Assembly: GCA_044352465.1 (NCBI GenBank)
Contig: JBILDU010000074.1
Coordinates: 1 to 15,479, forward strand
Source of the DNA: Bdellovibrionota bacterium
Lineage (GTDB): Bacteria; Bdellovibrionota_C; UBA2361
DNA length: 15,479 nucleotides
Direction of reading: 5' to 3'
Numbering within the stretch: position 1 is the first letter of the stretch; the number at the start of each line of letters is the position of its first letter. The notes beneath the pieces are model-generated. The model was not told where the DNA came from and ran no database searches. It worked only from the letters and a program-made list of their open reading frames with translations. The position numbers and the translations under genes are program-made. Positions 105-14,353 of the stretch are shown one piece after another.

Positions 105-2636
105 ATGCCTGAGATTATTGAACTCAAGGGGACCCTCACGACTACCAATGGTGAGCCGATTCGGATTACGCCAGCTCACCTCTATAATCAGATCGTGGGG
201 TCCTATGACTTCGCCGCTGTTGATACCTCGAGCTGGTGGCTGACAAGCTCACGGCCTCGGATCGCTTTCACTGTTTTAGCGGGGTCACAGCGGGGTGGTG
301 GAACATTGCAGCTTTATCGTTATGCCAACTGGCTCGTCGATCTCGGATTTTCGGTTACTATTTATTCGAATGATCCGATTTATCCGGACTGGGCTGATTT
401 AAAAGCGCGCTATCTCTACACTCTCGACGGGTATGAGCGATATCGCTCGATTAGTGAAGAGATCGTTATTGTCTACTCGATCCTCGAGTTGCCCGAAATT
501 TTGCAGTCGCGCAACCGCTCGTCTCAGAAGATTCTTCATTTTTGTCAGGGTCTGGAGGAATTCCATTTTGGCCGATCGTTTCGTGAAGTAATGGCGCCGA
601 AGCCCGTCTTCCATCTTCTCAACTCTCTCCCAGTAGGGCGCATCGTCATTTCCCCGGCTCTAGAGGATTATTTTAAGAGCCACTATAAGCAAAAATGTTT
701 CTATATTCCGAACGGGCTCGACCCGGTCTTTTCTACAAAACCAGAGCAGTCCTCCATAAAGAGCCCACTGGGGGAGGGGCACCGTCCAATCAAGATCGTT
801 CAGGTGTGTGATCCGGGGCAGCCTCTCAAGGGGGCGCGAGTCTTATTTGATGCCGTTTGTCTTCTTGTAAGGCGATATCGTGATCGAGGATTTAATTTCC
901 ATATCGATTTCTTGTCGGGGCCGAGTCCAACTGACACCTTGTTGCTGGCTCCGGCTCCAACCGGGGTGTCGTATGCGATTAAATCAGGCCTTACCCCATC
1001 CTCTATGCGTGAAGCTTACGAAGCCGCTGATGTGGTCGTCAACGCATCGTTCCACGAGGGTCTAGGTCTTTCCTCTCTTGAAGCGCTCGCCAGTGGTGTG
1101 TTTCTTATTCAAGCCGACAACTTCGGACTCGATGGAATTCTCGAGGATGGTGTCAACTCGATTACCGTTCCGCGTGATAATGTCACCGCACTGGCTTCCG
1201 CGTTAGCTACCCTTATCGAGATCCCAGAGTTTCGACGAATCGAATCACGTTTCGCTCAGCAGATAGCTCACCGTTTTTCGATAGAGAAGCAGTTTGAATC
1301 GTTTTGCGGAGTATTCGAGCGTATTACCGAGGTATCAGGACTGCGTGAGCGGTCCATCGCGGAAGGAAAATGTAACGTCAAGTCCGCCGACAATGGCATG
1401 CGAGTCGAGGTCCACGAGCTGCCGCGATTCTCTGTTCTTGTTCCGGTATATAATCACGCTCATTTTCTTCCTGAGACCCTTGATACCTTGAAGTCGCAGA
1501 CCTACCCGCACTGGGAGGCGGTCATTGTTAACGACGGCTCGACCGATGACACGCCCGCGGTCATGAGACGGTATGCGGCGGATGATGACCGATTTAAACT
1601 CGTTCACCGTGAGAATGGTGGAACTGCGGCAGCTCTGAACACTGCATTTTCAAACGCCCGCAACGACTGGATCTGCTGGCTGTCCTCAGATGACTTCTTT
1701 AAGCGCGAGAAACTTGAGATTCATGCCCGCTATATTGGGGCATTGCCAGACGTGAAGTTTTTTCACTCTCTTTTCTCAGTCTTCGACGAGGCCTCCAAGG
1801 AGGAGCGATGCGATATCCCATCTTCGCATGCCTGGTTTGCAAACCCGGCTTTCAAAGCACTCGACATGTGTCGGTGGAATTCGGTGCACGGTAATACCGT
1901 GGCGATTCATCGAGATATCTTTCAACGTGTCGGAGGATTTCGCTCGGAGTTCCCTAGTGCTCAGGATTACGATATGTGGCTTCGGATGAGCCTGGTAACG
2001 CCGGCATTTCTGATTAATAAAGTGACGTGCACAACCAGGCTCCACGATGCCTCAGGAAGCGTGAATTTCCCCTATGCGGGAATATTTGATTCCTATCGGT
2101 CCTTGATCGACGTTCTGAACAGTCACAAATTTCCCGAGATTCTGCCATTTCTGAACCTCCGTAGGCAACGGGAACTCTCTGACGCGGTAATACAATGTGG
2201 CCTCGTGAGTGGAGAGGCGGAGAGTTTCCTGTATGTTGGCACGGCCTATCGCCGCAGTCCAATTTTAGAAAGGCTCCTCGAGTTCTACGGAGATCCGGAG
2301 CTCGCGGCGACAGATCGTCAACTTGTCCTCGAATCACTCCAGGTAGCCCGTAATGTTCTATCGACGTTGCCGAACAAGTACCCCTTTTTGGATCGGCACT
2401 TTGAGAGGTTTAAATCGGCGGAGGCCCTTGGGTACGAATATCGTCCGATTGATCCGTTCGCGGAGATGGTCGCTCGATACGAGCAGTTCCTGCGAACGCG
2501 GGACGCCTCTAAGATCGCGCTTTACCGGCGTTACTTCACGAAGCTCGCACTGAATAAAGTTCCCGGAGTGCCTGAGCTTGATGATATCTTTGGCCGCCCT
2601 GAGCTTCATAATGTCGATCTGTCGCTTGCTCAGTGA
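105..2636 (+). CDS. Two-domain glycosyltransferase: N-terminal GT-B (GT4-like), GT-A (GT2) and an uncharacterised C-terminal region
   Basis: 843-aa ORF. GT4 features: RGGG loop, YIPNG, EX7E motif EGLGLSSLEALASG. GT2 features: FSVLVPVYN, VIVNDGSTD, WLSSDD, QDYDMWLR. Confidence 0.9.
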   Translation: MPEIIELKGTLTTTNGEPIRITPAHLYNQIVGSYDFAAVDTSSWWLTSSRPRIAFTVLAGSQRGGGTLQLYRYANWLVDLGFSVTIYSNDPIYPDWADLKARYLYTLDGYERYRSISEEIVIVYSILELPEILQSRNRSSQKILHFCQGLEEFHFGRSFREVMAPKPVFHLLNSLPVGRIVISPALEDYFKSHYKQKCFYIPNGLDPVFSTKPEQSSIKSPLGEGHRPIKIVQVCDPGQPLKGARVLFDAVCLLVRRYRDRGFNFHIDFLSGPSPTDTLLLAPAPTGVSYAIKSGLTPSSMREAYEAADVVVNASFHEGLGLSSLEALASGVFLIQADNFGLDGILEDGVNSITVPRDNVTALASALATLIEIPEFRRIESRFAQQIAHRFSIEKQFESFCGVFERITEVSGLRERSIAEGKCNVKSADNGMRVEVHELPRFSVLVPVYNHAHFLPETLDTLKSQTYPHWEAVIVNDGSTDDTPAVMRRYAADDDRFKLVHRENGGTAAALNTAFSNARNDWICWLSSDDFFKREKLEIHARYIGALPDVKFFHSLFSVFDEASKEERCDIPSSHAWFANPAFKALDMCRWNSVHGNTVAIHRDIFQRVGGFRSEFPSAQDYDMWLRMSLVTPAFLINKVTCTTRLHDASGSVNFPYAGIFDSYRSLIDVLNSHKFPEILPFLNLRRQRELSDAVIQCGLVSGEAESFLYVGTAYRRSPILERLLEFYGDPELAATDRQLVLESLQVARNVLSTLPNKYPFLDRHFERFKSAEALGYEYRPIDPFAEMVARYEQFLRTRDASKIALYRRYFTKLALNKVPGVPELDDIFGRPELHNVDLSLAQ

Positions 2637-2752: not shown

Positions 2753-3328
2753 ATGGTGACGGTCCTAGGTATTAACGGTAGTCCCCATGGGGATTCCGGT
2801 AACTGCGCCAAGCTCGCTGATGTCGTGCGGCGTATCTTGGGTGCCCGAGCTCGATTCGAGACGATCCACCTGGCCGATGAGATCCCATTTTGGGAGGTAT
2901 CTGAAAGCATTGGGCGTGCGGACGGTTTTGTTTTCCTAACCGGCACGTATTGGGATAGCTGGGGGAGTCCGTTGCAGCGGTTTTTGGAGGAGGCAACTGT
3001 GACTGAGGGAACAGACCTCTGGCTGGGGAAGCCGTGTGTCGTGGGGGTTTTGATGCACTCCGTCGGCGGGAAGGGGGTGCTATCCCGTCTTCAGGGTGTT
3101 CTCAATACCTATGGGTTGTTTATCCCACCGATGAGTGGATTTTTGTACTCCGTGGTCAACCAATTAGCCCTCAAGGGTGAGGAGTCGCCACTGAGCGAGG
3201 ACCTGTGGCGGATCGATGATCTCGAGGTGGTATGTCATAATCTCCTGGAGGCGTGCCGATATCCCGGCGATTGGCGAGGCTGGCCAGTCAATCGCACAGG
3301 CTTTGACAAGGTTTGGCTTGAAGGGTAA
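2753..3328 (+). CDS. Flavodoxin-fold NAD(P)H-dependent FMN reductase family protein
   Basis: VLGINGSP phosphate-binding start, ADGFVFLTGTYW (cf. family TPxYW) and GKP motif. Start moved to ATG 2753, which follows GGAG at 2739-2742 and sits just before the first beta strand. Confidence 0.8.
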   Translation: MVTVLGINGSPHGDSGNCAKLADVVRRILGARARFETIHLADEIPFWEVSESIGRADGFVFLTGTYWDSWGSPLQRFLEEATVTEGTDLWLGKPCVVGVLMHSVGGKGVLSRLQGVLNTYGLFIPPMSGFLYSVVNQLALKGEESPLSEDLWRIDDLEVVCHNLLEACRYPGDWRGWPVNRTGFDKVWLEG

Positions 3329-3364: not shown

Positions 3365-3988
3365 ATGGGGGTTGTTTCTGCACCCGATGCGCTTGAGCGG
3401 TTACGGGAAGGTAATCGTCGTTTCGCCAACGGCTTAATTAGCCGGGATACCCTGTTAAGTCACGGACGACGCACTGAGCTTACCAAAGGCCAAAATCCAA
3501 CGGCGATAATACTGGGGTGCGCCGATTCGCGGGTGCCGGCAGAGATCGTGTTTGATCAGGGTCTCGGAGATCTCTTCGTTATTCGTGTCGCAGGAAATAT
3601 CGTGGCGCCCTCCCAGGTCGGCAGTGTGGAGTTTGCGGCGGCACGCTTTGGTGTTCGCCTGGTAGTGGTTTTGGGTCATTCGCAGTGTGGCGTCATCCGC
3701 GCAACGATCGAAGACCTCTTGAGCCCGAGTTCGGGCCAGTCGTCAAATATCCGCTCGATCGTTGATCGGGTGCGACCCGCCATCGAACCGCTCATGGAGA
3801 GCGATCTGAGAAACAGCCCGGAAGCACTTATGACCGCATCGGTCCGAGCGAATGTACGAGTAGCAACGAATCATCTTCGTCACGGCTCGGCTATTTTGGA
3901 GAACCTCATTCAGCACGAGGGTTTGAGGATAGTGGGAGCGGAATACAATATAGAGAGCGGCGCGGTCGAATTCTTTGACGGCATGTGA
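3365..3988 (+). CDS. can: Beta-class carbonic anhydrase
   Basis: ALERLREGNRRF N-terminus, zinc-ligand motifs GCADSRVP and GHSQCG, and GDLFVIRVAGN. Confidence 0.95.
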   Translation: MGVVSAPDALERLREGNRRFANGLISRDTLLSHGRRTELTKGQNPTAIILGCADSRVPAEIVFDQGLGDLFVIRVAGNIVAPSQVGSVEFAAARFGVRLVVVLGHSQCGVIRATIEDLLSPSSGQSSNIRSIVDRVRPAIEPLMESDLRNSPEALMTASVRANVRVATNHLRHGSAILENLIQHEGLRIVGAEYNIESGAVEFFDGM

Positions 3989-4057
3989 GACCTCGCTTCT
4001 CGACCAGCGCCTGTCCATCCGAGAGAGAGTGCCTCATTAATCCGTCAGGGCGCGAAA

Positions 4058-4085
4058 TTGCAGTGCGGGTCGTGTTACATAGAAT
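4058..4085 (+). promoter_or_regulatory. Putative sigma70 promoter for nhaB
   Basis: TTGCAG (4058-4063), 16-nt spacer, TAGAAT (4080-4085). The predicted start near 4091 coincides with the 5' arm of the downstream structure. Confidence 0.55.
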
Positions 4086-4090
4086 CGGCA

Positions 4091-4299
4091 ATCCGCTCTC
4101 TATGAATTCAAGTGAGTAGTGTTTCTGCGCGGGGTCGTTCAGTAATGGGTGCCTACTCATTAGTGAAGGGCTCGTGTGGCGGGTCTTTTTTATGGTTTGT
4201 GGGTCATGATTGAGTAGAGCGGTTTGGGGAAGAGGTGACACTCGATCGCCTTGTGACGAGGCGGTCCGGTAGAAGACGCTCGGCTGTCCCCTTTTCCCC
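4091..4299 (+). promoter_or_regulatory. Structured 5' leader of nhaB (candidate cis-regulatory RNA or riboswitch)
   Basis: Stems: CCGCTCT 4093-4099/AGAGCGG 4216-4222; TTCA-AGTGAGTAG 4107-4119/CTACTCATT..TGAA 4153-4167; GGGGAAGAGGTGACA 4226-4240/TGTCCCCTTTTCCCC 4285-4299; GATCGCCT 4244-4251/AGGCGGTC 4259-4266. G-U pairs favour the + strand. Confidence 0.45.
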
Positions 4300-4325
4300 T
4301 CCCTTTCCCCCTCTCGAAATCAACC

Positions 4326-5828
4326 ATGACTCATTCTGACGGAGCCGTGCATGCTCCGAGCTCCCATTCGGGGAGCGATGCACCGCGCTGGTATATCGGC
4401 GCGCTCGGGTTCGCGATGGCGATGATCTTCCTCGTGAAGAACTCATTCGGACCGGCAGCTGCTGGGTGGCTGCTCATCCTCGGTGTGGTGGCAACGTTCA
4501 CCACGGCCCACAAGGTGTTTCCCCTGGCGGGAGCCGGTGTGCTCACGATCTGGGGGCTCCTCTTGGGGCTCACGACGGTTCAGGCGTGGGAGCACGAGAT
4601 CGAGGCGAACGTCAAAGTTCTCCTTTTGATCGCGTGCATGGTGCCAGCGATTCATTTCTTCAAAGATCTCCTCGAGGCTAGCTTCACGGCGATCCTCGTC
4701 AAGATTAAGAAGAAGGTGAATCTGGCCTTCGCGTTCTATGCCTTTGGTGCGGTGTCCTCGGCCTTTTTTGATGCACTCACCGTGGCGGCGATGGTGCTGA
4801 CCGCCCTTGGCGGGATGTACCTCACCTACGAATCGGTGCGTCACGCCGCCGAGATGAAAGCTGCAAGCGACATCGGAGATATCGAGGTTCGTAAGAAACT
4901 CGATGACTTTCGAGCGTTTCTGCGGCAACTGCTGATGGTGCTCCTCGTGGGTACGATGACGGGAGGTCTCACGACCCTTGTTGGCGAACCGCAGAACTAC
5001 CAAGTGGGACAGATGTGGGGATGGGGGTTCCAGGACTACTTCGTCCGGATGCTTCCGATCTCTGCTCCGGTTCTTCTCGGTGGTTTGGGGGTGACCTGGC
5101 TTGTCGAGGGTACTCCGGTAGGGCGCATCTTCGGATACGGCACCGAGCTTCCGGTATCGATTCGGTCGTACCTGACGCTCCAGTCAACCGAGCAGGCACT
5201 TCGGCGGACCCCCACCGAGCTCCTGCACCTCAAGGTGCAAGCTGTAGCGGGTCTTCTGCTTGTCGTCGCGCTTGGTTTGCAGCTCGCGTCGATCGGGCTT
5301 CTGGGGCTGATAACGATGATCATCGTGTCAACTGCGATGGGGAGGGTTGCGGAGACACGGTATGTGCCGGCGTATCACGCCGCTATGCCGTTCTTCGCTC
5401 TCCTGCTCGTCTTCTTCGGTGCGGTCAGCATTATCCACGAGCAGCACCTCTTTGAGGGGCTGATGCGGTGGATTGTGAGTCTGCCCGAAGGGACGCGGTT
5501 GCTCGCGATGTTTGTCGAGACGGGAATGGTAAGCTCCGTTTCTGACAATGTGTTCGTGGCGTGCGCGCACGCCTCGAATGTACAGAAGCTGATGACTGAT
5601 GGTACTCTTGATGCCGCGGCGGGTGATAAGCTTGCTATCGCTATCATCGCAGGTACCAACATCGTCAGCATCGCGACTCCCAACGGGCAAGCTGCGTTCC
5701 TGCTCGCCATCTGCTCCGAGACGGCCGCACATTTGCAGCTGCGCTACGTGCGTATGTTGTGGATGGCTTTCCCGTATACGGTGGTCCTCAGCATCATCGG
5801 TGGCGTCGCAGTCAGTCGCTGGATCTAA
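4326..5828 (+). CDS. nhaB: NhaB-family Na+/H+ antiporter (divergent)
   Basis: 500-aa polytopic membrane protein with NhaB motifs SAFFDALTV, GGLTTLVGEPQN, FGYGTELP, SSVSDNVFV, GTN..ATPNGQAAFL and YVRMLWMAFPYT. Confidence 0.9.
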   Translation: MTHSDGAVHAPSSHSGSDAPRWYIGALGFAMAMIFLVKNSFGPAAAGWLLILGVVATFTTAHKVFPLAGAGVLTIWGLLLGLTTVQAWEHEIEANVKVLLLIACMVPAIHFFKDLLEASFTAILVKIKKKVNLAFAFYAFGAVSSAFFDALTVAAMVLTALGGMYLTYESVRHAAEMKAASDIGDIEVRKKLDDFRAFLRQLLMVLLVGTMTGGLTTLVGEPQNYQVGQMWGWGFQDYFVRMLPISAPVLLGGLGVTWLVEGTPVGRIFGYGTELPVSIRSYLTLQSTEQALRRTPTELLHLKVQAVAGLLLVVALGLQLASIGLLGLITMIIVSTAMGRVAETRYVPAYHAAMPFFALLLVFFGAVSIIHEQHLFEGLMRWIVSLPEGTRLLAMFVETGMVSSVSDNVFVACAHASNVQKLMTDGTLDAAAGDKLAIAIIAGTNIVSIATPNGQAAFLLAICSETAAHLQLRYVRMLWMAFPYTVVLSIIGGVAVSRWI

Positions 5829-12361: not shown

Positions 12362-14353
12362 CTATTTTGCCGCCGCACTCGCATCCAAAAAACGTGCGAG
12401 GACGTATATTTTTTCGGCGGTGCCGATGACGACGATCTCATCGTCGGGAAGGAGCACCTCGTCACCAGGGGGATGAGGCAGGGTCTCTTGACCCCGCCTG
12501 ATCGCAAGAAGCGTAGCCTCGTAGCGGCGCCGAAAATCGCTTTGGGTAATGCCGGCTTCGCCGAGGGGCGAGCCGTGGGGGATTTTAAAAGTGGCGACCT
12601 CGAATTCAGGAATATGGATTTTCAGATCGGAAACCGAGGGCGAGGGGGTCCGAAACATTTTGTATCCATCGGCGCGAAGCTCGGTGACGAATCGGTCGAT
12701 GTGGCTGACGGGAACCAGATACTTCGAGAGGACACGTACGAATATCTCAACTGAGGTTTCAAACTCCTCCGGAATCACTTCATTGGCTCCCTGAGCATAG
12801 AGCGGTTCGGTGTCCTCGACGAGTCGGGTACGAGCGATGATATAGAGCGCGGGATTAAGTCTTCGGGCGAGCGAGACGATTCGCCGGGTACCAGCTGAGT
12901 CCGATATTGCGACGACGAGAACTCGAGCTGTCTCGATGCTTTGGCCGAGCAGGGTGTGCTCTTTAGAGGCATCGCCGTAGTGAATCGGATGGCCGAGCAG
13001 GCGTTCGCTGCGCACAGTTTCTGGGTTTGTCTCGAGGACAAGGTAGGGGATATGAGCGGTTTGCGCAGCGCGGGCAACGTTACGGCCGTTGACGCCGAAT
13101 CCGACGATGATGAGGTGATCGTGGAGACCGGTTCCGCGGGTGATCTCCCCAGGCGACGCCATCCACCCGTTCTTGATCACCTGTGGCAGCGGAAGTCGGT
13201 CAAGGGCTTCGGTGATGGCGGGCGCGAAGCGGAGCATCACGGGGACGAGGACGATCGAGATTAGGGAGACCGAAAGGAATAGCTGATAGGAGGAGTCGGA
13301 TAGCACGTTCAGTCCGAGGGCTACCTTAGCGATGACGAAGGAGAATTCCCCCACTTGGGCAAGGGCCAGTCCAGCAAAGGCACATGTCTTCAGCGGCAAT
13401 CCGACGGCGTAGACTGCGACAGCGGCGACGATGGCCTTGAGGACGATCACGACCACACAGGCGCACGTAACGAGGGCCCAGTTATCGACGAGGAAGGAGG
13501 CGTCGAGGAGCATACCCACTGAAACGAAGAAGATAGAGGTGAAGATATCTCGAAACGGGAAGATGTTACTTAACGCCTCGTGGCTGTATTCAGAGTCGGC
13601 GATAAGAAGGCCCGCGAGAAACGCGCCGAGGGCGAGGGAAAGGCCGATCGAATGGGTGAAGAGCGCGACGGCGAAGCAGAGAACGACGACGGCGAGTGAG
13701 AAGAGCTCGCGACTCCGGACGCGCGCTACCTCGTGCAGGAGGGGGGGGATGAGTTTCGCTGAAGCAACTATGACGACGACCACTAGCAGCGCGGCACGGA
13801 GAAGGGTCCAGGTCAGCGAGTCCCCAGCACCCCCCTGCCCAGCGATTAAAGGCAGGGCCAGCATCATCGGGACTGCGGCGATATCTTGAAAGATCAGGAC
13901 TCCGAGGGCGGCTTTGCCATAGGGGGCCTCCACCTCTCGTCGTTCCTGGAGAAGTTTGAGGAGTACGGCCGTACTACTGAGAGAAATAAGTAGGCCGATG
14001 ACGATACTTTCGGAACCGCTATGCCCCATGACGTGCGTCAGTCCGCTTATCGTGGCGACGGTGATAACCACTTGGAGCAGGCCGCCGACGAGGACGAATC
14101 GACGGATCCGGTTGAGCTCTCGTAACGAAAGTTCGAGGCCGATTGAGAATAGAAGAAGTACCACACCGATTTCGGCGAGGAGTTCAACCGGCTCGACCGA
14201 AGTCACTATACCGAGGCCGTGCGGCCCGGTGAGTGCCCCGGTAAAAAGGAAGCCGATAATCGAGGGGACACGAAGCCTATGACAAAGGAGAATTACTCCT
14301 ACGGCGAGGGTGAAGACAACAACGAGTTGATTAAGGAGTTCGAGTCCGTGCAT
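12362..14353 (-). CDS. CPA2-family monovalent cation:proton antiporter (Kef/YbaL-like) with RCK_N (TrkA-N) and RCK_C domains
   Basis: LAEIGVVLLLFSIGLE, SSTAV, LIFQDIA, ALGAFLAGL, FFVSVG, LAQVGEFSF, Rossmann motif IIVGFGVNG, YGDAS and a C-terminal TrkA-C-like LLAIRRG..PPGD..L.PDD. Confidence 0.93.
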   Translation of the reverse strand: MHGLELLNQLVVVFTLAVGVILLCHRLRVPSIIGFLFTGALTGPHGLGIVTSVEPVELLAEIGVVLLLFSIGLELSLRELNRIRRFVLVGGLLQVVITVATISGLTHVMGHSGSESIVIGLLISLSSTAVLLKLLQERREVEAPYGKAALGVLIFQDIAAVPMMLALPLIAGQGGAGDSLTWTLLRAALLVVVVIVASAKLIPPLLHEVARVRSRELFSLAVVVLCFAVALFTHSIGLSLALGAFLAGLLIADSEYSHEALSNIFPFRDIFTSIFFVSVGMLLDASFLVDNWALVTCACVVVIVLKAIVAAVAVYAVGLPLKTCAFAGLALAQVGEFSFVIAKVALGLNVLSDSSYQLFLSVSLISIVLVPVMLRFAPAITEALDRLPLPQVIKNGWMASPGEITRGTGLHDHLIIVGFGVNGRNVARAAQTAHIPYLVLETNPETVRSERLLGHPIHYGDASKEHTLLGQSIETARVLVVAISDSAGTRRIVSLARRLNPALYIIARTRLVEDTEPLYAQGANEVIPEEFETSVEIFVRVLSKYLVPVSHIDRFVTELRADGYKMFRTPSPSVSDLKIHIPEFEVATFKIPHGSPLGEAGITQSDFRRRYEATLLAIRRGQETLPHPPGDEVLLPDDEIVVIGTAEKIYVLARFLDASAAAK

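Follow-up and report, generated by a model that had tools for sequence, protein, structure and literature searches.

What occupies the long gap in front of nhaB in an uncultured, freshwater member of the Bdellovibrionota, and might it encode a regulator of this Na+/H+ antiporter gene? The question is raised by a 15,479-nt stretch of DNA (referred to below, at its full length, as the window), taken from a metagenome-assembled genome of 3.13 Mb in 170 contigs. The gene itself, at positions 4326 to 5828 of the forward strand, encodes a 500-aa protein that is indeed NhaB (Pfam PF06450; E value, 7.6e-113), as an earlier interpretation made without database searches (the sequence-only reading) had it. 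The start of nhaB is conserved in both genomes used for comparison: G001, which belongs to the same genus as the window (83% identity at the NhaB level), and G036 (63% NhaB identity). Upstream lies a beta-carbonic anhydrase gene (3365 to 3988), leaving an intergenic gap of 337 nt. The window sequence is present in public lake-water metagenome runs, and no RNA data set was found among the public sequencing runs that contain it.

NhaB is a rare protein in this group, found in 3 of 41 relatives of the window's genome. Any nhaB at all is carried by only 4 of 124 species genomes of the phylum, 3 of which fall into the NhaB clade of the window; the fourth (G066; 33% NhaB identity) has an unrelated, AT-rich leader. 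Among 5.8 billion proteins, the close relatives of this NhaB form only five clusters (96, 84, 81, 69, and 70% identity), with the next proteins being at most 45% identical, and the whole clade amounts to about half a dozen sequence clusters. Two gene models deserve a comment. First, the NhaB of G036 (locus L003, 194 to 1579, reverse strand) measures 461 aa, some 40 residues (query positions 312 to 351) being missing relative to the otherwise near-identical 500-aa protein P0004, which may reflect either a deletion or an assembly fault. Second, in a 96%-identical relative (P0001), NhaB was called 30 codons further upstream, through the C/U-rich tract described below; this is probably an annotation artifact of an open frame in front of the true ATG.

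Three other regions of the window were noted in passing. A second cation/proton exchanger gene, of the Kef type (12362 to 14353, reverse strand; Na_H_Exchanger, TrkA-N, and TrkA-C domains), is located 6.5 kb from nhaB, and the model of the conserved core introduced below found no copy upstream of it. Between 10290 and 12328, an arginase/agmatinase-family gene (reverse strand) is divergent from a deoxyhypusine-synthase-like gene (forward strand), a pair that suggests polyamine (homospermidine-type) metabolism. Finally, positions 105 to 2636 (forward strand) encode an 843-aa fusion of a GT4-type (Glycos_transf_1) domain and a GT2-type glycosyltransferase domain.

Features read from the window alone

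The sequence-only reading had described the region in front of nhaB as a long, structured, switch-like leader, with a transcription start near 4091 and held together by a closing stem, within which one heptamer could pair with either of two perfect partners. When the sequence was reread, every motif that it had named was found in place:

4058 to 4063 and 4080 to 4085, forward strand: TTGCAG and TAGAAT, separated by a 16-nt spacer, a promoter-like pair read from the sequence
4093 to 4099, forward strand: CCGCTCT, complementary to AGAGCGG at 4216 to 4222, the closing stem of the sequence-only reading
4153 to 4159, forward strand: CTACTCA, with its partners TGAGTAG at 4113 to 4119 and at 4211 to 4217, read from the sequence

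That the leader is structured was borne out, since positions 4091 to 4330 fold at -90.1 kcal/mol, compared to -77.6 ± 4.5 kcal/mol for shuffled sequences (z score of -2.78; 1 of 200 shuffles as good). The proposed promoter fared less well: the hexamer pair is present, but a consensus scan returned no sites, against an expectation of 0.3, and TTGCAG has 3 of 6 matches to the consensus. If used, the pair would place the transcription start near 4092, just 5' of a block, CGCUCUCU, that the window has in common with G001. In G001, -10-like hexamers were seen by eye a few bases ahead of the corresponding block, CGCTCTCT. The short, low-depth contigs obtained from four lake-water or freshwater runs showed no indels or joints and contain one variant of the C/U-rich tract, as well as a G>A change at 4060, the one variant in the -35-like hexamer, which was seen in a low-depth contig.

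The heptamer TGAGTAG occurs four times in the window (0.94 expected), with three of these occurrences located in the leader. Because this motif was picked after looking, we turned to a count in random segments of the genome, which allows for any 7-mer: of 20,000 such segments of 234 nt, 1,272 (6.4%) contained some 7-mer three times at a spacing of at least 20 nt, and 774 (3.9%) contained such a triple in both orientations. For the region of the 3' TGAGTAG, pairing with CTACTCA yields -18.9 kcal/mol in the window, a value that none of 300 shuffles reached, and -12.0 kcal/mol in G001 (reached by 107 of 300), and pairing with the region of the 5' TGAGTAG yields -14.0 kcal/mol (16 of 300) and -11.3 kcal/mol (110 of 300), respectively. 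The closing stem reaches -16.5 kcal/mol in the window (16 of 300) and -7.1 kcal/mol in G001 (200 of 300). The switch as originally drawn, with its closing stem and a choice between two TGAGTAG partners, is thus specific to the window, being at shuffle level in G001 and lacking its 3' partner in G036, where the stretch expected to carry it is absent. A leader peptide was also considered, in the form of a five-codon open reading frame at 4102 to 4119 (ATG...TAG, overlapping the first TGAGTAG), and was rejected, with no counterpart being seen by eye in G001 or G036.

A conserved core of two hairpins that share an arm

Upstream of nhaB in all three readable genomes of the NhaB clade (the window, G001, and G036), we identified a conserved core of approximately 60 nt (4135 to 4191), consisting of a first hairpin (P1-P2) followed by a second one (hairpin 2). 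The core and the segment preceding it are made up of the following elements:

4093 to 4134, forward strand: 5' leader segment, with the CGCUCUCU block (common to G001) and the first TGAGTAG (4113 to 4119)
4135 to 4141 with 4164 to 4170, forward strand: P1, with UUCA/UGAA invariant and an internal mismatch at 4137/4168
4142 and 4163, forward strand: invariant G.G mismatch between P1 and P2, flanked by invariant pairs
4143 to 4150 with 4155 to 4162, forward strand: P2, with its loop at 4151 to 4154; the sequence varies and the self-complementarity stays
4165 to 4175 with 4179 to 4189, forward strand: hairpin 2, the loop of which holds an invariant GUGG (4176 to 4179)
4186 to 4191, forward strand: U-run at the end of hairpin 2

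Across the three genomes, the blocks UUCAGU, UAGUGAA-R-GG-Y-UC, GUGG, and part of the U-run are invariant. CTACTCA, the heptamer singled out in the sequence-only reading, corresponds to the loop and 3' arm of P2. In the 5' leader segment, AAUUCA-AGUG and GUAG could be recognized by eye in all three leaders, and G001 does not preserve the pairing between this segment and CTACTCA.

Core identity amounts to 72% between the window and G001 and to 61% between the window and G036, at distances at which the fourfold-degenerate sites of nhaB are saturated (45% and 26% identical, respectively). Furthermore, the gene upstream of the leader is different in each of the three genomes (beta-carbonic anhydrase, an unknown protein, and TerC), indicating that the leader moves with nhaB. 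Plain local alignment of the leaders gave a weak signal for the window and G036 (reached by 15 of 500 shuffles) and a nonsignificant one for G001 and G036 (226 of 500). A covariance model built on all three loci (R1) scored 78 to 87 bits on these training loci and no more than 23.6 bits anywhere else in the 124 genomes of the phylum; its next-best matches, at 23.6 and 22.1 bits, read like coding DNA by eye and were discarded. Circularity is avoided with a second model (R2), built on the window and G001 only and thus leaving out G036, the top match of which in the 2.4-Mb G036 genome lies immediately ahead of nhaB (25.7 bits; E value, 1.5e-4). In two congeners without nhaB, R2 found nothing better than an E value of 1.6.

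Outside the clade, the regions upstream of distant NhaB loci (L007, L008, and L009; 33 to 45% identity) are unrelated to this leader. A metagenome scan with an NhaB alignment gave 290 pattern matches and no relative, and one with the core pattern gave 93 stretches, the best model score among 80 of these 93 being 24.1 bits. That best stretch appears to be unrelated and probably eukaryotic DNA, and none of the 80 stretches encodes NhaB, as judged by tblastn at an E value of ≤0.01; we treated the core-pattern matches in metagenomes as chance. Within the 124 genomes, the core is, in summary, restricted to nhaB, and the claim of an extended leader that is conserved, structured, and associated with this gene stands.

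Both hairpins retain their pairing in spite of sequence change. In P1-P2, 88% of alignment cells are paired, compared to 31 to 50% with the partners slid, with two compensatory pairs and 6 of 14 pairs invariant. In hairpin 2, these values are 92% and 38 to 75%, with three compensatory pairs. Of the conservation and covariation that had been named as a check on the leader, the former was found, in that the core is kept in three leaders, and the latter remained within reach of chance, the observed covariation being matched by 57 of 500 shuffles for P1-P2 and by 39 of 500 for hairpin 2 (with three sequences, two of which are from one genus). The folding is strand specific: in the three genomes, the sense strand of the core folds at -22.6, -23.1, and -16.5 kcal/mol, compared to -5.8, -12.8, and -11.9 kcal/mol for the opposite strand, and both hairpins contain G-U pairs and compensatory changes. 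That the sense strand folds far better argues for an RNA rather than for a DNA palindrome. Over its full length, the leader of G036 is not more stable than shuffled sequences (z score of -0.44; 65 of 200 as good).

The two hairpins have one strand in common. GAAGG(G), at 4165 to 4170, is part of both the 3' arm of P1 and the 5' arm of hairpin 2, and because of this shared arm, P1-P2 and hairpin 2 exclude each other. The idea of mutually exclusive folds put forward in the sequence-only reading therefore survives in altered form: two exclusive hairpins exist, one of which is terminator-like, but they are not the pair that it had drawn. P1-P2, whose energy is between -14 and -18 kcal/mol in each species, is part of the minimum free energy structure of all three leaders, while the stem energy of hairpin 2 is -10 to -11.5 kcal/mol. 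A terminator scan called hairpin 2 at 4165 to 4189 of the window and at the equivalent position of G036; it did not call it in G001, where the U-run sits 5 to 6 nt past the hairpin. When the full P1 is weighed against the full hairpin 2, the two states are only 1.4 to 1.9 kcal/mol apart in all three species. In equilibrium folds of nascent transcripts, P1 stays closed in all three, and in the window, it becomes part of a long hairpin, which in turn borders on the U-run.

The near-equal energies of the two states, the terminator-like hairpin 2, and the little room available for a downstream promoter (the spacer between hairpin 2 and the ATG of G036 is C/U rich and only about 50 nt long) led us to read the core as an attenuator. 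We consider it somewhat probable that an RNA switch not catalogued so far acts in cis from the nhaB leader, as an attenuator built on two competing hairpins; since three loci form the evidence base, our confidence in this is moderate. We speculate that closure of the lower part of P1 would occupy the 5' arm of hairpin 2 and transcription, or the mRNA, would continue into nhaB, while opening of lower P1 would allow hairpin 2 to form beside the U-run, such that the transcript would end or otherwise be silenced. Hairpin 2 would then act as the terminator of a transcript that presumably starts upstream of the core. The signal may be linked to Na+ or pH homeostasis and may act by stabilizing P1, being read either via a trans-acting factor or, which we regard as rather doubtful, by the RNA itself. 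Like generic terminator/antiterminator platforms, the leader has exclusive hairpins that share a strand, a U-run after the second hairpin, and a presumed promoter upstream; as in attenuators, a structure that would exclude the putative terminator is present, through the shared GAAGG(G) and with the two states within 1.4 to 1.9 kcal/mol of each other in three species. Unlike generic attenuators, it has no conserved leader peptide, and the U-run is offset in G001.

The C/U-rich tract, a genus-level module, and possible control in trans

Downstream of the core, a second module is present in the window and in G001 and is absent in G036. Its elements, together with the C/U-rich tract that precedes the start codon, are as follows:

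4203 to 4213, forward strand: anti-start segment, just past the U-run and overlapping the second TGAGTAG (4211 to 4217)
4320 to 4330, forward strand: start-codon region (ATG at 4326 to 4328), pairing with 4203 to 4213
4226 to 4299, forward strand: P4, a long hairpin (inverted repeat I1) with a purine-rich 5' arm, GGGGAAGAGG...
4287 to 4315, forward strand: C/U-rich, almost G-free tract right before the start codon

The anti-start segment and the start-codon region form an inverted repeat of 11 nt (I4; 91% complementary), and the resulting helix is kept in G001, with an A-U pair changed to G-U. The duplex has an energy of -18.4 kcal/mol in the window, unmatched by any of 300 shuffles, and of -14.2 kcal/mol in G001, matched by 15 of 300. 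In P4, the 5' arm is base paired to the first half of the tract, and the RNAalifold consensus of the window and G001 has 29 predicted pairs, 4 of which are compensatory, all 4 of them within the P4 domain by alignment columns. In this genus, the module might provide a second layer of control, with 4203 to 4213 pairing with the start-codon region and P4 tying up part of the C/U-rich tract.

The tract itself is more widely kept. With a length of 30 to 45 nt, it precedes the ATG of nhaB in all three genomes (in L002 at approximately 2985 to 3025 and in L003 at approximately 1585 to 1625, both on the reverse strand) and in a strain variant (run X8). Among the 1,517 long ATG open reading frames of the genome, nhaB is the only one with at least 30 pyrimidines in the 35 positions from -40 to -6. 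We dismissed pyrimidine tracts as a general start signal, with 51 tracts being found genome-wide and having no evident tie to start codons. A GGAG, GAGG, or AGGA core at -20 to -4 was found for 32% of long ATG open reading frames, compared to 15% of random 17-mers. In the window, with its 12 large open reading frames, hardly any gene is preceded by a Shine-Dalgarno sequence, and a search with a conserved 16-mer did not find the 3' end of the 16S rRNA in the assembly.

Ribosomal protein S1, Rho, and the purine-rich seed of an sRNA would all be plausible partners of a C/U-rich, G-poor tract, and the one in front of nhaB might serve to load Rho, to receive S1, or to be targeted by an sRNA. This brings up control in trans, in which an RNA-binding protein or sRNA would recognize the UUCAGU/UAGUGAA hairpin or the tract and thereby set termination, Rho loading, or translation. 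The pairs of upper P1 and the first pairs of P2 never vary, which fits sequence-specific recognition, and the occurrence of the tract before nhaB only, among all long open reading frames, is in line with it as well. There is also a precedent, since the Hfq-dependent trans-acting sRNA CpxQ represses nhaB in enterobacteria, according to a review (PMC9438474), and thereby exerts posttranscriptional control over the nhaB mRNA. CpxQ, however, is a trans-acting sRNA from a distant group, whereas the element described here is cis encoded and structured. Moreover, no neighboring gene is conserved and no candidate factor was found, and the core is present once per genome, whereas trans-acting factors usually have several targets. 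On balance, we deem control in trans improbable.

Relation to known RNA classes and remaining alternatives

If the RNA itself were the sensor, the core might be expected to resemble a known riboswitch, and the sequence-only reading had indeed suggested a variant of the nhaA-I, nhaA-II, or DUF1646 (Na+) classes. This was not supported for the two models searched, nhaA-I and Na+, neither of which matches at an E value of ≤10 in any of the three leaders. At gathering thresholds, no Rfam 15 family was found in the window, and at E values of ≤10, the three leaders gave, far below the cutoffs, only stray miRNA, snoRNA, lncRNA, flg-Rhizobiales, and DUF805b matches. For the Sodium family (RF03071; cutoff, 40.5 bits), the regions searched at E values of ≤10 without a match were 3950 to 4400, 4092 to 4205, and the leaders of G001 and G036; genome-wide, it had no matches at E values of ≤1, and in none of the 124 genomes of the phylum did a match exceed the cutoff. 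The nhaA-I model (RF03057; cutoff, 37 bits) likewise had no match at an E value of ≤10 in the leader and none at ≤1 genome-wide. As judged by these sequence and model comparisons, the core belongs to no catalogued RNA class.

There are nevertheless resemblances. The Na+-I riboswitch (DUF1646 motif, RF03071) is, according to its description (PMC9337991), a cis-regulatory leader of cation transport genes in which a terminator competes with the aptamer stem, read as an ON switch. Like the nhaB core, it is about 55 to 60 nt long and consists of two hairpins, the first of which has conserved letters at its 3' foot and the second in its loop (PMC9337991; model consensus). The conserved letters themselves differ: by eye, UUCAGU, UAGUGAARGG, and GUGG in the nhaB core stand against GGUUGGGC, CUUUCAAGA, and GGGGUG in the Na+-I consensus. 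The nhaB core also has no linker between its hairpins, unlike Na+-I, and the competing arm is shared by the hairpins themselves. The main text of the Na+-I paper contains no occurrence of nhaB (PMC9337991). The Li+-I and Li+-II classes (nhaA-I, RF03057, and nhaA-II) resemble the present case in being expression-activating leaders of Na+/H+ antiporter genes, and rare variants have intrinsic terminators (PMC9646797). According to that paper, they occur with nhaA and never with nhaB, whereas the gene here encodes NhaB. In the literature on nhaB and riboswitches, seen in part and including PMC9646797, we found no description of a cis-acting nhaB leader.

These comparisons bear on the explanation by a true riboswitch, in which the core would bind an alkali cation (Na+ or Li+) or sense pH directly and turn nhaB on. 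Several observations are consistent with this: the gene encodes a Na+/H+ antiporter, no regulator gene is conserved nearby, the two states are nearly isoenergetic, and there are invariant odd or unpaired positions, namely, the G.G at 4142/4163 and the GUGG loop of hairpin 2. In addition, the layout is loosely like that of Na+-I (PMC9337991). Against it stand the Na+, nhaA-I, and other Rfam models, which have no match at an E value of ≤10 beyond strays, and the conserved letters, which are unlike the Na+-I consensus. The motif is also very small, with no evident ligand pocket, although three sequences cannot reveal one. We therefore consider a direct ion or pH sensor unlikely, and we hold with the same reserve the corresponding proposal, in which the ~60-nt core would serve as both aptamer and expression platform and represent a new riboswitch class next to Na+-I and Li+-I/II, very small in size, dedicated to nhaB, and responsive to Na+, another alkali cation, or pH.

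Could the leader have no regulatory role at all? It might be a constitutively structured leader, serving, for example, mRNA stability, or reflect leftover similarity of a transferred nhaB cassette, with the window-specific helices being due to chance. The small number of sequences, the weak shuffle statistics, the unexceptional stability of the G036 leader, and the ease with which 7-mer triples and 7-bp stems arise by chance all speak in favor of this. Set against these, the core is kept while synonymous sites are saturated, model R2 recovers the G036 core independently, and the overlapping arms and balanced energies recur in three species that differ in G+C content; together, they make this a very unlikely explanation. 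Finally, the two invariant blocks do form an imperfect inverted repeat, TTCAGT...TAGTGAA, with a fixed spacing of 17 to 18 nt, but its reading as an operator or promoter element for a transcription factor has little to commend it, given that the spacer changes in sequence yet stays self-complementary, that G-U pairs strongly favor the sense-strand fold over that of the opposite strand, that a second covarying hairpin and a U-run come after it, and that a spacing of ~30 bp exceeds what is usual for dimer sites.

In summary, we favor an attenuator of two hairpins competing for a shared arm; the observation made in the sequence-only reading is partly confirmed and its interpretation partly supported. 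The validated classes of alkali cation riboswitches respond to Na+ and Li+, and none is linked to nhaB in the available parts of their descriptions (PMC9646797 and PMC9337991). If this reading is true, the second main family of Na+/H+ antiporters would gain a regulator in the form of a self-contained RNA switch upstream of nhaB, from an uncultured, freshwater lineage, and if the core were to bind an ion directly, it would be among the smallest of such sensors, although the rarity of the NhaB clade limits the case. The C/U-rich tract stands out in a genome in which only about a third of long open reading frames have a Shine-Dalgarno-like core, and it provides a lead on translation start, or the control thereof, in this organism.
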